Positions 11,783 through 24,069 of a stretch of DNA of 64,000 bases are shown here, in pieces (positions within the stretch are counted from its first letter, which is position 1; each line of letters begins with the position of its first letter). The translations under genes and the position numbers were made by a program. This DNA is from a virus. Its lineage: Duplodnaviria > Heunggongvirae > Uroviricota > Caudoviricetes. The notes beneath the pieces are model-generated. The model searched no databases. It had not been told where the DNA came from and was given only the letters and a program-made list of their open reading frames with translations. Location of the stretch: IMG/VR virus record IMGVR_UViG_3300024270_000011; one strand, written 5' to 3'.

Positions 11783-12574
11783 TTAGAAATGCCAATGATA
11801 ATTGTCGTTACGACCTTCGGCGCGAGGGCCAGGCAAGTTAATGCATTTCTTGTGTTCATTTCTTGCATGACGCTGGCTCATATTACGCCAAGTATCGACA
11901 TCGGGGATAATGTCCAGAAGCAGATAATCATCAATCTGGTCATAAGTTACGCCCATATTGTCTTCATCAGTCTGACCAGTCATACCATCCGCAGGCGCCT
12001 TATCAACCAGGTGACGAGGGATTTCCTTCATCGCACGACCCATCATGAGAACTTCACGAACAGTCAGCTCCTGGAACAGATGGAAGTCGCCGGCGAGATC
12101 GCCATACTTGGTGGTGTAACCAATCCAACCCTCGGACCAGTTACCAGTATTGACTACACGACCTCCATAAATTGCTGCGATAGCATATAGAGTTACCATA
12201 CGCATACGAGCAGGAACATTAGTGCGAACAGCAGGAATTTCGCAATCACCACGACCCACGCAACCATAAAATGCATCAACTGCAGGCTCGATATTGATTT
12301 CATCATACTTGATACCAAGAGCCTCGCAGACTTCATAGGAATGCGCGATGTCTGCCTGAGTGCCACAAGGCATCAATACGCCGTGAACCCTGTCTGCGCC
12401 CAGTGCTCGGACAAGCAGGGCGGCCGCAATTGTAGAATCCTTACCGCCGGAAATACCGATGATAGCTTTGGTCTCGGGACCGGCATTCTTCACGAAATAT
12501 TTACGAATCCACTCAACAGTGTATTCAATCTGATATTTGGGGTCAAATTCCCACTTTCTCTTATCCTTACCCAT
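11783..12574 (-). CDS. nadE: NH3-dependent NAD+ synthetase
   Basis: 263 aa. PP-loop SGGKDS (GISGGKDSTIAAAL). NadE size and layout. Confidence 0.8.
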   Translation of the reverse strand: MGKDKRKWEFDPKYQIEYTVEWIRKYFVKNAGPETKAIIGISGGKDSTIAAALLVRALGADRVHGVLMPCGTQADIAHSYEVCEALGIKYDEINIEPAVDAFYGCVGRGDCEIPAVRTNVPARMRMVTLYAIAAIYGGRVVNTGNWSEGWIGYTTKYGDLAGDFHLFQELTVREVLMMGRAMKEIPRHLVDKAPADGMTGQTDEDNMGVTYDQIDDYLLLDIIPDVDTWRNMSQRHARNEHKKCINLPGPRAEGRNDNYHWHF

Positions 12575-12575
12575 T

Positions 12576-13079
12576 TTACTTTCCTCCGTTATAATGAACG
12601 ATATAGACTATATAGTCTTCATCAAAAACTTCTCGAATCATTGCTTCGATTACATTCCAGTTTGCGCCACCGCGGTCACAGCCAATCAGATAAGGGAAAC
12701 CGATTGTAGACCCCTTAGGAAGAACCTGCTTGAGATTATTCAAACAAATCCAAAACGCATCATAGGAAGTGTAACGCTTGCCATCATAACCATAGTTATT
12801 CTGTGCAAACATATTGCAGACATGTTGATGTTTAATGTCTTTCATAAAGTCCTCATACAGAGGAACGAGCTGAACATCACCAAGCATCATATTAACGCCC
12901 AATGTTACCATTGCATCATATTTTGCTCGATATGCATCATAAACTTGCGGGTAGGTATCGCGAATCTGCTTCGCGATACCAGACGCCATTTTACCCTGAC
13001 AATTCACCTGATGGCAAATCACATCAAGATTCATGTCTTTCTGTACTTTGAGTAAGTCACCAGGCATATGAACTATCAT
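12576..13079 (-). CDS. macro-domain protein (ADP-ribose / O-acetyl-ADP-ribose processing)
   Basis: 167 aa. ICHQVNCQGKMASGIAKQI and GFPYLIGCDRGG match macro-domain signatures. Confidence 0.7.
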   Translation of the reverse strand: MIVHMPGDLLKVQKDMNLDVICHQVNCQGKMASGIAKQIRDTYPQVYDAYRAKYDAMVTLGVNMMLGDVQLVPLYEDFMKDIKHQHVCNMFAQNNYGYDGKRYTSYDAFWICLNNLKQVLPKGSTIGFPYLIGCDRGGANWNVIEAMIREVFDEDYIVYIVHYNGGK

Positions 13080-14551
13080 TAGTGTACCTCCGGATAAAGA
13101 TTTGCACGAATCTGCTGGAAAGTCTGCAGATTGTAGTACTGACCATCCTTGTAGATAGTCTTCATAACAGTGAGATTGTCGTCAACCCACTCAGAGAAAC
13201 CATCAATGCACTCGAAAGTGCCATCGGGATGCTTCTGAACCATGCAGCAACCCTTCTGAGACTTCTTCAGTCCGCCAACGTCGGTCTTAGGGTCCTTGTA
13301 GATAGGAACTTCCTTACCACCGAAGACACCATAAGTAGCCTTCATAGCCATGCCCCAAGTATCACGAGTCAGAACAGTGAACTTGTTGTCCGGGCTGAAC
13401 AGAGCGTGGAAACAGAAAGCGCCAACGCCGAAGACCACATTAGTGGAAGCAAAGCCCAGTTTTTCGAGGGATTCATAAATCTGCTCAACGCGGTTCAGAG
13501 TGCAGCCATCGCCGTAAATCAGACCAATATGAGGGTCGAGGACCTTGTAACCAGCAGCATTGATAGTGCCGCCAAAAACATCCCACAGCTTCTGGATAGT
13601 GCCAACGGAGATAGCAACCATGTCGCCGGAGTCAGGACGAATGAGCAGTTTGCCATTGTGGGCGAGAATTTCGTCCTTGCAAGCAGGAATGATATTGTTT
13701 ACCATATTCCAGTAGTCATAGGTATCAGATACCATAGAGAAACTGGTATTAGGATAGATTTCAGTCAGCATACGCTTTACGAAAGTAATTTCATCACCAT
13801 CGATTGCGTAGTTAGCAGCCATAACAGAGTGCTCAGTGGAAACGGCGCCAATGCCAATCTTGTGCTCTGCACAGTTAGCATAGTAGTACTCGTCCAGATA
13901 AGGCAGAGCAGGAATGGTAGAAGTCTTATTGAAAGACAGGAGCCAAGAAGCAGAGCAACGAGTTGCATCTTCCAGGCAGCTCATGCCACGGAAACCGAAG
14001 TCAGCCATTGCCATATAAGGGTCGGCGCCAGGTGCGGTATGAGAATAGAACTTCTCAGCAACCTTGTGGTACTCCCAACCTACGGTCGCATATGCGCACA
14101 TAGGCCACACTTCAGTCTGAAGCAGGCACTCAAGCCACTGAATAACCCAGGCGAAACGAGGATGGGTATTGCGCATCTCAACCAGAGGAATTCCCATATT
14201 GATTACAGAACCCTCGGGAATTGCGCGGATTTCTACGGGCAGGTAGCCCAGTTCATGCAGTTCGACGATACGGTCTCGCGCCACATTGCCAAGACCAAGG
14301 TGGGCATCGATGTAATGGTCATATTCATACATAACCTGTTCGATGGTTTCATAGAAGAACTCTTCAAAGCCCTTCTGCATATCCATAATGAAAGGCTGAA
14401 TACCATAAACAACCATCTTAGGGAAGTTGTCATTCATTGCCTTTCGAGCAGTCAGATAAGATACCAGATACTCCTGGTTATCGGGATACATCAGAGGGTG
14501 GCACTGCTTATAAGAGTCACTGTACAGCATAATCATCTTACGAAAATTCAT
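13079..14551 (-). CDS. nadV: nicotinamide phosphoribosyltransferase (NAMPT/NadV)
   Basis: 490 aa. NAMPT-like MVSDTYDYWN motif and overall length. Plus ORF 13082-14656 is its shadow. Confidence 0.8.
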   Translation of the reverse strand: MNFRKMIMLYSDSYKQCHPLMYPDNQEYLVSYLTARKAMNDNFPKMVVYGIQPFIMDMQKGFEEFFYETIEQVMYEYDHYIDAHLGLGNVARDRIVELHELGYLPVEIRAIPEGSVINMGIPLVEMRNTHPRFAWVIQWLECLLQTEVWPMCAYATVGWEYHKVAEKFYSHTAPGADPYMAMADFGFRGMSCLEDATRCSASWLLSFNKTSTIPALPYLDEYYYANCAEHKIGIGAVSTEHSVMAANYAIDGDEITFVKRMLTEIYPNTSFSMVSDTYDYWNMVNNIIPACKDEILAHNGKLLIRPDSGDMVAISVGTIQKLWDVFGGTINAAGYKVLDPHIGLIYGDGCTLNRVEQIYESLEKLGFASTNVVFGVGAFCFHALFSPDNKFTVLTRDTWGMAMKATYGVFGGKEVPIYKDPKTDVGGLKKSQKGCCMVQKHPDGTFECIDGFSEWVDDNLTVMKTIYKDGQYYNLQTFQQIRANLYPEVH

Positions 14552-14569
14552 ATCTTAAATCTCCTTTTC

Positions 14570-23047: not shown

Positions 23048-23083
23048 TTCTGATATACCTCTCTTTCACTTCTTTACATATAT

Positions 23084-23112
23084 ATTATATCATATATTTT
23101 TAATAAAATCAA
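23084..23112 (-). promoter_or_regulatory. SigA-type promoter module
   Basis: TTGATT-N17-TGaTATAAT. Confidence 0.6.
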
Positions 23113-23122
23113 TTAAGATTTT

Positions 23123-23659
23123 TTATTTAGAAAGTGTGTTGATTATCATACTTCCTACTAAATTTCCTAAAATTGCTAAAATTAAAGTCCAAGACCAAGC
23201 GTGTGCTACGCCGAGAACAATAACATTTGCAATGCAATGTTGAAAACCACAGAAGATAAATAGAGGGACTCCATACAATATTCCAACATAAGTCCCTCTC
23301 TTAAACAAATCAACACATATGTACATAATCATTCCGCAGAATACGGAACGAATAAAAAATGCTACTGAAAAATCCCAACTCGCAACTTTTTCCAGCGCTA
23401 CTGGGATTAACTGTGGTGAGCAATAGCTAAGTAGTAAACCAAACACATAGCCAGCAACAAGGTTGATTACCAAAATCTTGGCTAATTCAGCCTTTCTATC
23501 TTTCCAATAATAGCCAGCTCTGCCGGTATACAAGTCAGCCTGTAGGTAACAAACGCCCATTAGTCCAAAAGCAAAAAGCACGGGGCCAAGCGGATTGCCA
23601 AGGAATAATAAAACCGCAACTCCAAACCCAATAAGGATGGAGGCCAGGATACTTTTCAT
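23123..23659 (-). CDS. polytopic membrane protein (possible small-molecule/vitamin transporter)
   Basis: 178 aa with about 5 TM helices. Located between NADAR and sirtuin genes. Confidence 0.4.
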   Translation of the reverse strand: MKSILASILIGFGVAVLLFLGNPLGPVLFAFGLMGVCYLQADLYTGRAGYYWKDRKAELAKILVINLVAGYVFGLLLSYCSPQLIPVALEKVASWDFSVAFFIRSVFCGMIMYICVDLFKRGTYVGILYGVPLFIFCGFQHCIANVIVLGVAHAWSWTLILAILGNLVGSMIINTLSK

Positions 23660-24069
23660 TAGAGTTCGGACCTAATCTTCATGAGGAGTTTGCCGAGGTT
23701 GTTCTCGCCGACACCCCTACATACGCCCCAATAGGTGTCGTTCCACCAGTTACCTTCAACGAGCTCTTCATTTCCGGTCGCCTTTAACTTCGCCGCCAGT
23801 TCAGGGTCTGCGAACTTTTGACGGAGCGCAGTTTCCATAACTGATAGTTTCACTTCTTCCCAATCTGGGCGCAACTTAACGCTACGACCCATTTTCTTAG
23901 ACTCACCAGGAGTAGCCGCACGTGAGATGTTAATGCGCTCCACCATATCGAGAGTCTTCATCGCTTGGAAGTAGTGCTCAGTAGACGGGAAGGTAAGCTT
24001 CCCATCACGAACAGTACAAGGGTAGAAGTTACTTAAAAATGCAAATTCGCCATCGAACTTATCAATCAT
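23659..24069 (-). CDS. NADAR-domain protein (YbiA/DUF1768)
   Basis: 136 aa. FLSNFYP...FPSTEHYFQAMK signature of the NAD- and ADP-ribose-associated NADAR family. Confidence 0.7.
   Translation of the reverse strand: MIDKFDGEFAFLSNFYPCTVRDGKLTFPSTEHYFQAMKTLDMVERINISRAATPGESKKMGRSVKLRPDWEEVKLSVMETALRQKFADPELAAKLKATGNEELVEGNWWNDTYWGVCRGVGENNLGKLLMKIRSEL

Follow-up and report, generated by a model that had tools for sequence, protein, structure and literature searches.

By which route would a phage that encodes a NAMPT-like transferase, a Prs-like protein, a nicotinamidase, an NAD synthetase and a macro-domain protein side by side rebuild NAD+? The question is raised by a gut phage sequence of 64,000 nucleotides (the window), in which all called genes lie on the minus strand. 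An initial annotation had noted that NadE, a macro protein, a NAMPT-family protein, a Prs-like protein and PncA are clustered at 11.8-17.5 kb, and domain profiles and ORF calls recover all the genes that it named, in place. The five-gene set is found jointly in about 90 further viral contigs, so that chance clustering can be dismissed. The annotation also rightly recognised a set for NAD+ reconstitution and ADP-ribose handling such as phages use against NAD-depleting defences; its interpretation as a whole is partly supported. The module and its boundaries comprise the following features:

17489-17541, minus strand: hairpin terminator with the conserved phage promoter (TTGATT-N17-TGnTATAAT) directly after it, start of the module's first transcription unit
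16882-17454, minus strand: PncA nicotinamidase of the isochorismatase family, 190 aa (Pfam Isochorismatase, 4.9e-24)
16701-16889, minus strand: small ORF of 62 aa with no assigned function, relatives only in loci L004 and L005
15926-16699, minus strand: Prs-like Adps homologue, 257 aa, 39% identical to SPbetaL1 Adps
15393-15908, minus strand: ORFan lipoprotein, 171 aa, with signal peptide and lipobox LVAC
15327-15384, minus strand: second terminator-plus-promoter cassette, dividing the module into two transcription units
14570-15275, minus strand: two ORFs of 62 aa and 178 aa with no assigned function
13079-14551, minus strand: Namat-family transferase, 490 aa, with NAPRTase and NAMPT_N domains
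12576-13079, minus strand: macro-domain protein, 167 aa (phrog_335 'phosphatase', 4.5e-36)
11783-12574, minus strand: NH3-dependent NAD synthetase NadE, 263 aa (Pfam NAD_synthase, 9e-51)
11745-11781, minus strand: hairpin terminator at the closing end of the module

The module genes are bracketed exactly by terminator-promoter cassettes, and boundaries at these genes are counted in favour of a five-enzyme reading. Matches to the promoter pattern number 20 across the window, all of them on the minus strand; the expected number is 0.14. The search of related loci yielded no relative of the lipoprotein, which is an insert outside the pathway. No relatives of the 178-aa ORF were found among the related loci, and the 62-aa ORF in the same stretch is 93% identical in L142.

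The reading that we favour, at somewhat better than even chances, is that genes 11783-17454 make up a five-enzyme module for NAD+ reconstitution, a variant of NARP1-AP that runs via the deamidated (nicotinate) branch. NAD+ cut by a host NADase defence would yield nicotinamide and ADP-ribose (ADPR), or ADPR-1''-phosphate. The Adpp-like macro protein would convert ADPR-1''-phosphate to free ADPR, which it may also release from O-acetyl-ADPR, and Adps would convert ADPR and ATP to ADPR-pyrophosphate (ADPR-PP). PncA would turn nicotinamide into nicotinate, which the Namat homologue, with Ser211 in place of the amide-binding Asp and Lys209 and Ser238 alongside, would join to ADPR-PP to form NaAD; NadE would then produce NAD+ from NaAD, ATP and ammonia. 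The four enzymes and the phosphatase would thus complete a closed path by which the products of the NADase are turned into NAD+ again, and in which both NMNAT and NadD would be dispensable. If this is true, NAD+ is rebuilt via nicotinic acid instead of nicotinamide, by a route of which we found no description; our literature search returned no paper tying NARP1 to nicotinate, PncA or NadE. The NARP1-AP pathway, which rebuilds NAD+ after bacterial NAD-destroying defences, is already known; new is the pocket change linked to PncA and NadE.

The nicotinate-branch reading starts from what is observed: the families of the five proteins, their conserved catalytic residues, and a gene set that is itself conserved and tied exclusively to the pocket change. 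Catalytic residues are conserved in Adps, PncA and NadE of the window. The Adps homologue keeps residues R87, H121, D161, K185, I194, D212, D213, I214, C215 and F221 of ICP1 Adps, while D216 is replaced by Ser, as it is in SPbetaL1; its score lies under the NCBIfam PRPP-synthetase cut-off (100.7 vs 113). The top solved-structure matches of PncA are the P. horikoshii and M. tuberculosis enzymes, and its metal ligands D49/H51/H68 as well as D8/K107/C141 are invariant in 94/94 relatives. NadE scores 166.7 on NCBIfam TIGR00552 (cut-off 63.65) and contains the PP-loop SGGKDS. Its top solved-structure match, however, is the Francisella enzyme (115 bits; archaeal NadE 108 bits), which functions as an NMN synthetase and whose NAD synthetase activity is only marginal (PMC3376133), and this is counted against the nicotinate-branch reading. 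The same holds for the purpose of a phage PncA, which is left unaccounted for, many hosts already owning one.

The macro domain of the 12576-13079 protein was not detected in a single-sequence Pfam scan. Pfam Macro is nevertheless found in 14 of the 15 members of its family, and a profile of the 15 members matches, among solved structures, TARG1/OARD1 (6e-25) and an 'ADP-ribose 1''-phosphate phosphatase' (1e-17). With 38% identity to the phosphatase within the Adps-phosphatase-Namat operon of Vibrio phage RYC, the protein is, as judged from its sequence, a homologue of Poa1p/TARG1-type enzymes, a predicted Adpp-like ADPR-1''-phosphate phosphatase or O-acetyl-ADPR deacetylase. The macro-type phosphatase Adpp is a published component of NARP1-AP, which comprises Adps, Adpp and Namat in Vibrio phage Gary (Osterman et al., bioRxiv 10.64898/2026.01.28.702374). 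Neither this published role of the macro protein nor the linkage of the pocket to PncA and NadE is mentioned in the initial annotation. Compared at the family level, the window module and NARP1-AP agree in their three protein families and in gene order (Adps ... Namat, with macro adjacent) and follow the same predicted logic, in which ADPR or ADPR-1''-phosphate, a pyridine and ATP would give NAD+. They differ in that the window module has PncA and NadE as fixed extra parts, has a transferase without the nicotinamide-binding Asp and with an altered adenine clamp, and is split by inserted ORFans into two transcription units.

The transferase matches crystallised SPbetaL1 Namat (9W5X/9W5W) with 340 bits and mammalian NAMPT with about 180 bits, and in a neighbour-joining tree it is located among the Namats, apart from the NAMPTs of NARP2-type phages. 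Its catalytic core is kept (F185, R188, H241, R305, D307, G347, D348 and T395-R396-D397). The conserved catalytic residues, together with identities to the SPbetaL1 proteins of 39% for Adps and 41% for the transferase, relate the pair to NARP1 (Adps and Namat; Bas63, SPbetaL1, ICP1), a pathway in which the pyridine is joined directly to ADPR-pyrophosphate and NMNAT is unneeded (bioRxiv 10.1101/2024.02.11.579819). Unlike in NARP1, the predicted product here would be NaAD instead of NAD+, and the pocket contains Ser211 for SPbetaL1 Asp215, Lys209 for Gly213 and Ser238 for Ala242. In the crystal structure of SPbetaL1 Namat nicotinamide is hydrogen-bonded by Asp215, and the D215A mutation lowers nicotinamide-dependent NAD+ synthesis about 8-fold (PMC12774641). 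Gly213 and Ala242 are the counterparts of the human NAMPT inhibitor-resistance sites G217 and A244 (PMC4919578). Asp215 occupies the position of human NAMPT Asp219, for which the identical Asp to Ser substitution, D219S, is listed as one that 'switches substrate affinity' (Khan et al. 2006, as tabulated in PMC4919578; PMC7096376). That substitution is an engineered one in a PRPP-using enzyme, whereas here Ser is the natural, clade-wide state of a Namat-type enzyme. The D219S switch reportedly goes toward nicotinic acid. This one residue class and the gene linkage together suggest a substrate switch to nicotinate, with NaAD as a putative intermediate. The adenine 'selectivity clamp', on the other hand, is not intact: Arg40 of the SCL is replaced by Met39, and the SCH motif GSFTYQYNTRD has become GAFCFH, a 10-residue insert and VLTRD, with loss of Tyr396. 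These alterations, which are counted against a nicotinate-branch NARP1 reading, could weaken the selectivity for ADPR-PP and let PRPP be used in its place.

What is most informative about the locus is how strictly NadE and PncA are linked to the altered nicotinamide pocket of the transferase. Related loci (136) were sorted by the residue at the SPbetaL1 Asp215 position and their gene content was determined using profile HMMs on six-frame ORFs; tblastn and unbiased clustering likewise support the PncA/NadE linkage. The residue is Ser or Ala in 96 loci and Asp or Glu in the other 40. Ser/Ala-type loci contain PncA in 93/96 and NadE in 90/96 cases, whereas the profile HMMs found neither gene in any of the 40 Asp/Glu-type loci. 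The six viral loci without NadE by tblastn (L009, L018, L035, L045, L049 and L077) all terminate about 3 kb or less downstream of the transferase gene. In a separate collection of 19 additional loci, from gut Clostridia genome contigs, the residue is Ser in all 19. The macro gene is present in 77/96 Ser/Ala-type loci, which argues for ADPR rather than ribose-5-phosphate as the sugar donor, vs 6/40 Asp/Glu-type loci, in agreement with the 15% given for NARP1-AP (bioRxiv 10.64898/2026.01.28.702374). Among the related loci no sixth gene is widely conserved beside the module, and no NMNAT/NadD-like cluster was found. The close relative L141 has the transferase, the macro protein and NadE, but Adps and PncA were not found within 8 kb upstream, which is counted against the five-enzyme reading. 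Since Ser- and Ala-type transferases belong to one clade, which is the sister group of the Asp-type Namats, with Phass-1 as a separate branch, the association represents one or two evolutionary events and not 96 independent ones.

Could the module simply be an ordinary NARP1-AP, in which the transferase joins nicotinamide and ADPR-PP straight to NAD+? PncA and NadE would then be separate auxiliaries that boost host Preiss-Handler salvage, or PncA would clear nicotinamide, a product inhibitor of sirtuins. The residual nicotinamide-dependent activity of SPbetaL1 D215A (about 1/8), the fully conserved catalytic core and the phage sirtuin gene near the module in some relatives are consistent with this. 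It is nonetheless unlikely, as it accounts neither for the distribution of PncA and NadE (93/96 and 90/96 with a non-Asp pocket vs 0/40 with Asp) nor for the joint change of three pocket positions, and the transferase and PncA would compete over nicotinamide. Quite unlikely, too, is a PRPP-based phage Preiss-Handler salvage, in which the Prs-like protein would make PRPP, the Ser-type transferase NaMN and host NadD NaAD, to be finished by phage NadE; in a variant NadE would be an NMN synthetase and host NMNAT would finish. The clamp of the window clade is indeed degraded (Met39, SCH insert), Namat accepts PRPP in vitro (PMC12774641), and the Francisella match of NadE points the same way. The Prs-like protein, however, is identified as an Adps by its sequence similarity and by residues Lys185, Arg87 and an aromatic one at position 18, falls under the NCBIfam PRPS cut-off, and has a PP loop resembling that of SPbetaL1 Adps and probably without the 'DT' of PRPS. 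Moreover, Arg/Lys at position 40 is retained in the Ala-type clade and in Phass-1, the latter also with an SCH of canonical length, yet both have PncA and NadE; the ADPR-producing macro phosphatase is enriched instead of lost, and the route would be incomplete without a linked NadD or NMNAT. Bacterial Preiss-Handler salvage (PncA, PncB, NadD, NadE) does share its first and last enzyme families and the penultimate NaAD with the module, which lacks PncB and NadD; in the proposed route the Adps/Namat-type pair would take the place of both and attach nicotinate to preformed ADP-ribose.

The wiring suggested in the initial annotation, NAMPT and a PRPP synthetase making NMN with an NMNAT from the host or from elsewhere in the phage genome, is very improbable. 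It resembles NARP2 (NAMPT and a bifunctional NMNAT/Nudix protein; Vibrio phage KVP40 group), with which the module shares a NAMPT-superfamily enzyme and the countering of NAD depletion. Pfam, PHROG and NCBIfam all label the pair as NAMPT/NAPRT and Prs, and the data cover the 64-kb window, the remaining phage genome lying outside; such labels, however, have proved misleading in the case of NARP1 (bioRxiv 10.1101/2024.02.11.579819), and the two proteins belong to its Namat and Adps families. The transferase groups with Namat and not within the NAMPT clade, and aromatic residues take the place of the GGGLLQ of NAMPT (GMGGGLLQ in NARP2-type NAMPTs, at the position of GAFCFH). NMNAT, Nudix and PnuC domains were not found in the window ORFs scanned (mostly at least 60 aa, minus strand), NMNAT is not conserved in any related locus, and PncA and NadE would be left unexplained.

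Several genes further along the window had been combined with the module into one set:

22277-23047, minus strand: canonical sirtuin, CobB/Sir2Tm-like deacylase (Pfam SIR2, 2e-52; NF001752, 276.7 vs cut-off 221)
23123-23659, minus strand: short FNT-like membrane protein, 178 aa (formate/nitrite-transporter-like match, 6.5e-12)
23659-24069, minus strand: YbiA-subfamily NADAR, 136 aa (Pfam NADAR, 1e-25; TIGR02464, 78 vs cut-off 73.7)
25304-25831, minus strand: P-loop protein, AAA_28-like (1.8e-8), 175 aa, no assigned specificity

These four are accessory, in transcription units separate from the module. Two other units, with conserved phage promoters and with tRNA/RNA-repair genes, contain Sir2, NADAR and the P-loop protein, which are far less conserved near the module, so that the proposed single set is not upheld. 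The sirtuin heads a Sir2-YqeY-Thg1 unit preceded by a promoter at 23084-23112, and Sir2 is close to the module in only a handful of loci; NADAR is present in 38/96 Ser/Ala-type vs 3/40 Asp-type loci. The description of the macro and NADAR proteins as ADP-ribose processing enzymes is borne out, NADAR being a likely ADP-ribosyl-guanine glycohydrolase. The FNT-like protein, of which no relative was found among the related loci, has about 5-6 hydrophobic segments; it and NADAR lie in the reverse of the order originally given (NADAR, then membrane protein), the sole error of observation in the initial annotation. The 17.5-22.3 kb region, within the span of that annotation, contains unrelated genes, encoding major-vault-protein-like, Thg1 and YqeY proteins.

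All genes called in the window are carried by the minus strand, and every gene named in the initial annotation, which had proposed a set for NAD+ reconstitution and ADP-ribose handling, is present. Five of them form a module at 11783-17454:

11783-12574, minus strand: NadE, an NH3-dependent NAD synthetase (Pfam, 9e-51)
12576-13079, minus strand: macro protein, its gene abutting that of the transferase
13079-14551, minus strand: NAMPT-family (Namat-like) transferase, 41% identical to SPbetaL1 Namat
15926-16699, minus strand: Prs-like protein (Adps homologue), 39% identical to SPbetaL1 Adps
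16882-17454, minus strand: PncA, with pyrazinamidases/nicotinamidases as best solved-structure matches

The genes of the Adps homologue and the transferase are located on the same strand, 1.4 kb apart. The transferase scores 340 bits against the SPbetaL1 Namat crystal sequences (9W5X/9W5W) and ∼180 bits against mammalian NAMPT, and it falls inside the Namat family in a neighbour-joining tree rooted on the NAMPTs of KVP40-like and T4-like phages. The Namat/NAMPT catalytic core is completely retained, including Phe189, Arg192, the catalytic His, Arg306, Asp308, Gly360-Asp361 and Thr398-Arg399-Asp400. Similarly, the functional residues known from structures of ICP1 Adps (PMC13586617) are found in the Adps homologue, i.e., Arg87, His121, Asp161, the catalytic Lys185, Asp212-Asp213-Ile214-Cys215 and Phe221, together with the PP loop. 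ICP1 Asp216 is replaced by Ser in the window protein, as it is in the validated Adps of SPbetaL1 and in 15 of 38 loci with an Asp-type Namat.

The macro domain was missed by a single-sequence Pfam scan and was revealed with a profile of its 15-member family, which matches TARG1/OARD1 (6e-25) and 'ADP-ribose 1''-phosphate phosphatase' (1e-17). Macro proteins homologous to Poa1p of yeast occur in 15% of NARP1 operons, and in NARP1-AP they convert the aRES product ADPR-1''-phosphate into ADPR (bioRxiv 10.64898/2026.01.28.702374). As in NARP1-AP, the Poa1p-like macro-domain gene of the window lies no more than two genes away from those of NARP1. Vibrio phage RYC likewise shows the arrangement Adps-phosphatase-Namat, with a phosphatase 38% identical to the window macro protein; Vibrio phage Gary, from which the validated Adpp comes, is absent among the tblastn matches listed for the RYC phosphatase. 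By family membership and gene arrangement, the window module can be assigned to NARP1-AP, in a variant form.

This assignment differs from a NAMPT->NMN wiring, for which the initial annotation had raised the question of an NMNAT outside the window. In NARP1 the pyridine is joined directly to ADPR-pyrophosphate, and therefore the 'missing' NMNAT is not missing. Scans of the window ORFs (Pfam, for ORFs of at least 60 aa concatenated in blocks, and motif scans) revealed no NMNAT, Nudix or PnuC domains or motifs, and no matches to CTP_transf_like, HxGH, SSTxxR or NadR. The module thereby differs from NARP2, which has an NMN adenylyltransferase as partner gene, and from NARP3, with its PnuC-like transporter and bifunctional NadR-like enzyme.

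A difference from characterized Namats is found in the pyridine pocket. In the Namat crystal structure nicotinamide is hydrogen-bonded by Asp215, and the D215A mutation causes a ∼8-fold drop in nicotinamide-dependent NAD+ synthesis (PMC12774641). The equivalent Asp219 of human NAMPT defines substrate specificity (PMC7096376), and its replacement by Ser switches substrate affinity (PMC7096376; PMC4919578). In the window transferase this position is occupied by Ser211 (KTSTIPA versus GTDTIPA), so that the nicotinamide-binding Asp is lacking. Related loci were sorted by the residue at this position, using a total of 136 loci (with two contigs fetched twice) that comprise the window-seeded set, 52 loci found with SPbetaL1 Namat, the only locus obtained when viral contigs were scanned with RYC Namat, and reference phages.

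Genes found in loci of the two residue classes (profile HMMs against six-frame ORFs of whole loci; tblastn counts agree)
Asp or Glu at the Asp215 position, 40 loci: PncA 0, NadE 0, macro 6, NADAR 3
Ser (85) or Ala (11) at the Asp215 position, 96 loci: PncA 93, NadE 90, macro 77, NADAR 38

PncA and NadE are associated exclusively with the Ser/Ala-type transferases. Each of the six viral loci without NadE by tblastn breaks off no more than about 3 kb downstream of the transferase gene. In genome contigs of bacteria and archaea, scanned separately, 19 more loci were found, from assemblies of Lachnospiraceae, Ruminococcus, Roseburia, Agathobacter, Acutalibacteraceae and other gut Clostridia; all 19 contain Ser, and the gene order of the module is unchanged wherever it is not cut by a contig end.

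Two further pocket residues are among the positions that separate the classes. Gly213 gives way to Lys in the Ser type and mostly to Asn in the Ala type, with Arg in the annotated gut phage Phass-1, and Ala242 is Ser in all non-Asp sequences. These positions align with G217 and A244 of human NAMPT, inhibitor-resistance sites that line the nicotinamide tunnel (PMC4919578). In the SCL segment, Met39 of the window protein aligns with Arg40, leaving the stacking position without Arg, Lys or Tyr; this change to Met is confined to the Ser type, and the Ala-type sister clade retains Arg or Lys. The SCH segment of the window protein reads GAFCFH, followed by a 10-residue insert (ALFSPDNKFT) and VLTRD, with the Phe at position 3 kept and the Tyr at position 7 lost. 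The adenine clamp is thus partly altered by replacement of Tyr396 and an insert of 9–10 residues, with retention of Phe392 and an unchanged catalytic core.

The Namat homologues with Ala at the Asp215 position are those of loci L112, L116, L117, L120, L121, L123, L128, L130, L133, L134 and L083 (Phass-1, OQ749652). Most of them contain their own SCH insert (GSFSMQ...FTRD). Arg/Lys40 is retained, and every member is accompanied by PncA and NadE; Phass-1 combines the Ala with an SCH of canonical length. In the tree, the sister group of the Asp-type Namats is a single clade of both Ser and Ala types; Phass-1 branches apart. The association of the altered pocket with PncA and NadE goes back to one or two origins that selection has maintained, and not to many independent events.

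Conservation of the module was also analysed by scanning viral contigs with the window transferase, which gave 80 loci at 56–91% identity. In tblastn searches with the window proteins, Adps was found in 79 of these, PncA in 78, NadE in 74, the macro protein in about 67 and NADAR in 34; the Sir2, Thg1, MVP-like and P-loop proteins occur in at most 6 loci each. Unbiased clustering of all ORFs on the transferase strand, up to 7 kb from its gene, ranked the families alike, with no sixth widespread family next to the transferase and no NMNAT- or NadD-like cluster. The gene order PncA-Adps-transferase-(macro)-NadE is conserved, also in Phass-1.

In the window, terminator-plus-promoter cassettes at 17541-17489, 15384-15327 and 11781-11745 bracket and split the module. 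Three ORFs, encoding a 171-aa lipoprotein, a 62-aa and a 178-aa protein, separate the Adps and transferase genes. The lipoprotein (15393-15908) is an ORFan with a signal peptide and the lipobox LVAC; neither it nor the 178-aa protein has relatives in the related loci. The intervening ORFs were considered as RyR-domain (RyDEP) or other pathway proteins, an assignment that was rejected given the lack of Pfam matches and of relatives for the 171- and 178-aa proteins. In the closest relative, L142, the module halves are separated by a YqeY-Thg1 block. Locus L141, an Agathobacter MAG contig (JAXJVZ010000292.1) with 81% transferase identity, contains transferase, macro protein, NadE and NADAR, with neither Adps nor PncA within 8 kb upstream; that region instead encodes a nucleotidyltransferase, a cell-wall hydrolase and a cREC_REC protein.

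Catalytic residues are also conserved in the two proteins at the ends of the module. In PncA, 94 relatives show no variation at D8, K107 and C141 or at the metal ligands D49, H51 and H68, and it is this conservation by which K107 rather than K98 is assigned as the Lys of the Asp-Lys-Cys triad. NadE consists of 263 residues without a glutaminase domain, scores 166.7 bits against TIGR00552 (cut-off 63.65) and contains the PP-loop SGGKDS at residues 42-47.

The most parsimonious model employing all five conserved genes is NARP1-AP in a deamidated form. PncA would convert the nicotinamide released by NADases to nicotinate, and the macro protein and Adps would supply ADPR-PP. The Ser/Ala-type transferase would then join nicotinate to ADPR-PP, yielding NaAD, which NadE would amidate to NAD+. 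In this way the deamidated route would be closed, and PncB, NadD and NMNAT would all be unneeded. The analysis shows the protein families, their catalytic residues, the conservation of the gene set and its exclusive association with the altered pocket; from the pocket residues and the gene association we infer a preference of the transferase for nicotinate and NaAD as the intermediate. That the whole Ser/Ala-type clade consists of nicotinate:ADPR-PP transferases, forming NaAD in one step and bypassing nicotinate phosphoribosyltransferase and NadD, is a proposal to which we give about even chances.

The main rival is a PRPP-based Preiss-Handler route that would need the NadD of the host. It would require PRPP as a substrate of the transferase, which the weakened adenine clamp could indicate, and it gains some weight from NadE, the closest solved structure of which is the Francisella enzyme, an NMN synthetase (PMC3376133); an archaeal NadE of proven NaAD specificity scores nearly equally. 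Against this route, the Prs-like protein does not qualify as a PRPP synthetase, with a score of 100.7 bits where the curated TIGR01251 cut-off is 113, and solved PRPS structures give at most 55 bits.

NARP1, NARP1-AP, NARP2 and NARP3 have already been published. In the literature searched, no paper ties NARP1 or Namat to nicotinic acid, PncA, NadE or NaAD, and none of these terms occurs in the 2022 survey of viral NAD/ADPR systems. The Phass-1 genome paper gives 'nicotinamidase' merely as a table entry, and the five-gene NARP1-AP variant appears to be undescribed. NAD+ depletion is among the commonest bacterial anti-phage strategies, and phage counter-pathways are being described one by one. 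If the deamidated model is correct, PncA-Adps-transferase-Adpp-NadE would constitute a further, undescribed phage pathway for NAD+ reconstitution, a new variant containing a new enzymatic reaction, the synthesis of NaAD directly from nicotinate and ADPR-pyrophosphate. It would also provide a simple annotation rule, by which the residue aligned with Asp215 (Asp or Ser/Ala) and linkage to PncA/NadE jointly sort 'NAMPT-like' phage genes by function. The biochemical prediction is specific and could be tested cheaply with a handful of purified proteins. Phages of gut Clostridia would then carry the pathway widely and form a large reservoir of it, with consequences for how gut viromes are read and perhaps for the way in which phage infection affects the deamidated NAD precursor pool of the gut. 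Why these phages would favour it is a matter of speculation; it may be an adaptation to hosts with a fast deamidation of nicotinamide, or serve to trap a charged pyridine in the cell or to relieve sirtuins of nicotinamide inhibition.

A second group of genes lies upstream of the module on the same strand:

22277-23047, minus strand: Sir2, a canonical sirtuin (Pfam PF02146, 2.3e-52, full length)
23123-23659, minus strand: membrane protein, 178 aa, matching the formate/nitrite transporter family over most of the profile
23659-24069, minus strand: NADAR protein, probably of the YbiA subfamily (Pfam NADAR, 1e-25; TIGR02464, 78 versus 73.7)
25304-25831, minus strand: P-loop protein, only weakly AAA_28-like

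The NADAR and membrane protein genes had been interchanged in the initial annotation. Going by the conserved promoters, one transcription unit (28261->23123) comprises an exonuclease, an RNA ligase, the P-loop protein, NADAR and the FNT-like protein, and a separate one (23112->20422) Sir2, YqeY and Thg1. The sirtuin is of the standard deacylase type, with 152 bits to Sir2Tm, aligned HG motif and cysteine pairs, and a score above the NF001752 cut-off. It can be conjectured that the nicotinamide and O-acetyl-ADPR it releases could enter the module by way of the TARG1-like macro protein. The NADAR protein contains the sequence ...LVEGN..., consistent by eye with the YbiA-type Glu, and adjoins the module in 38 of the 96 Ser/Ala-type loci. 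All tested NADARs act on DNA, where they strip ADP-ribose from guanine, and DarTG1 is neutralised by those of phages (PMC11125620; PMC11825919). The proposed processing of ADP-ribosyl modifications by the phage is reasonable for NADAR, with membership in the module's system only a possibility. The stop codon of the membrane protein gene overlaps the start of the NADAR gene, and the protein has no relative in the related loci; transport of a small carboxylate, for instance nicotinate, by this protein is purely conjectural. The P-loop protein was considered as a NadR-type nicotinamide riboside kinase, similar to NARP3, and rejected: the AAA_28 match is weak, and neither a solved-structure or NCBIfam match nor an adenylyltransferase domain is found.

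Endolysins, PhoH and a sigma-70 family factor, together with the tRNA genes and the strongly conserved promoter described below, mark the window as part of a large phage. A megablast search with a 14-kb region revealed no near-identical DNA among 50,697 GenBank phage records; the nearest GenBank relative of the transferase is merely 48% identical, and the exact protein has no record among public assemblies. The relatives are found on viral contigs from uncultivated phages and on contigs that were binned with gut Clostridia. The promoter TTGATT-N17-TGnTATAAT (consensus TTGATTTTTnnnAAAAAATATGnTATAAT) occurs at 20 sites from 1557 to 62854, all on the minus, coding strand, with 0.14 expected. It is often located directly 3' of a hairpin terminator and marks the transcription units of the region.

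Several other features of the window were observed. A protein of 830 residues (17552-20044) combines a vault repeat with a shoulder domain of the major vault protein (1e-26), vault-like proteins being unusual in a phage, and a 510-aa SPFH/Band-7/flotillin protein is encoded nearby (7680-9212); both are kept in the closest relatives (L003-L005, L008, L140-L142). Genes resembling an RNA/tRNA-repair set are found at 9527-11669, 20886-22317, 25859-28200, 34570-36129 and 51853-52206, encoding a Thg1-like 3'-5' nucleotidyltransferase, YqeY, an RNA ligase, an RNase_T exonuclease, an AAA_33 kinase with metallophosphatases, a DUF2828/DUF7788 protein and a cyclic-phosphate-processing receiver (cREC_REC) domain. 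Between 37187 and 52524, 37 tRNA genes for nearly all amino acids form an array interspersed with small ORFs. Finally, the phage carries a RiPP-like cluster at 53999-62787, consisting of:

within 53999-62787: two weak radical-SAM-like ORFs
56835-57839: Ser/Asn/His-rich repetitive protein, 334 aa
57844-59649: YcaO cyclodehydratase (1.7e-30)
61732-62787: M28-family peptidase
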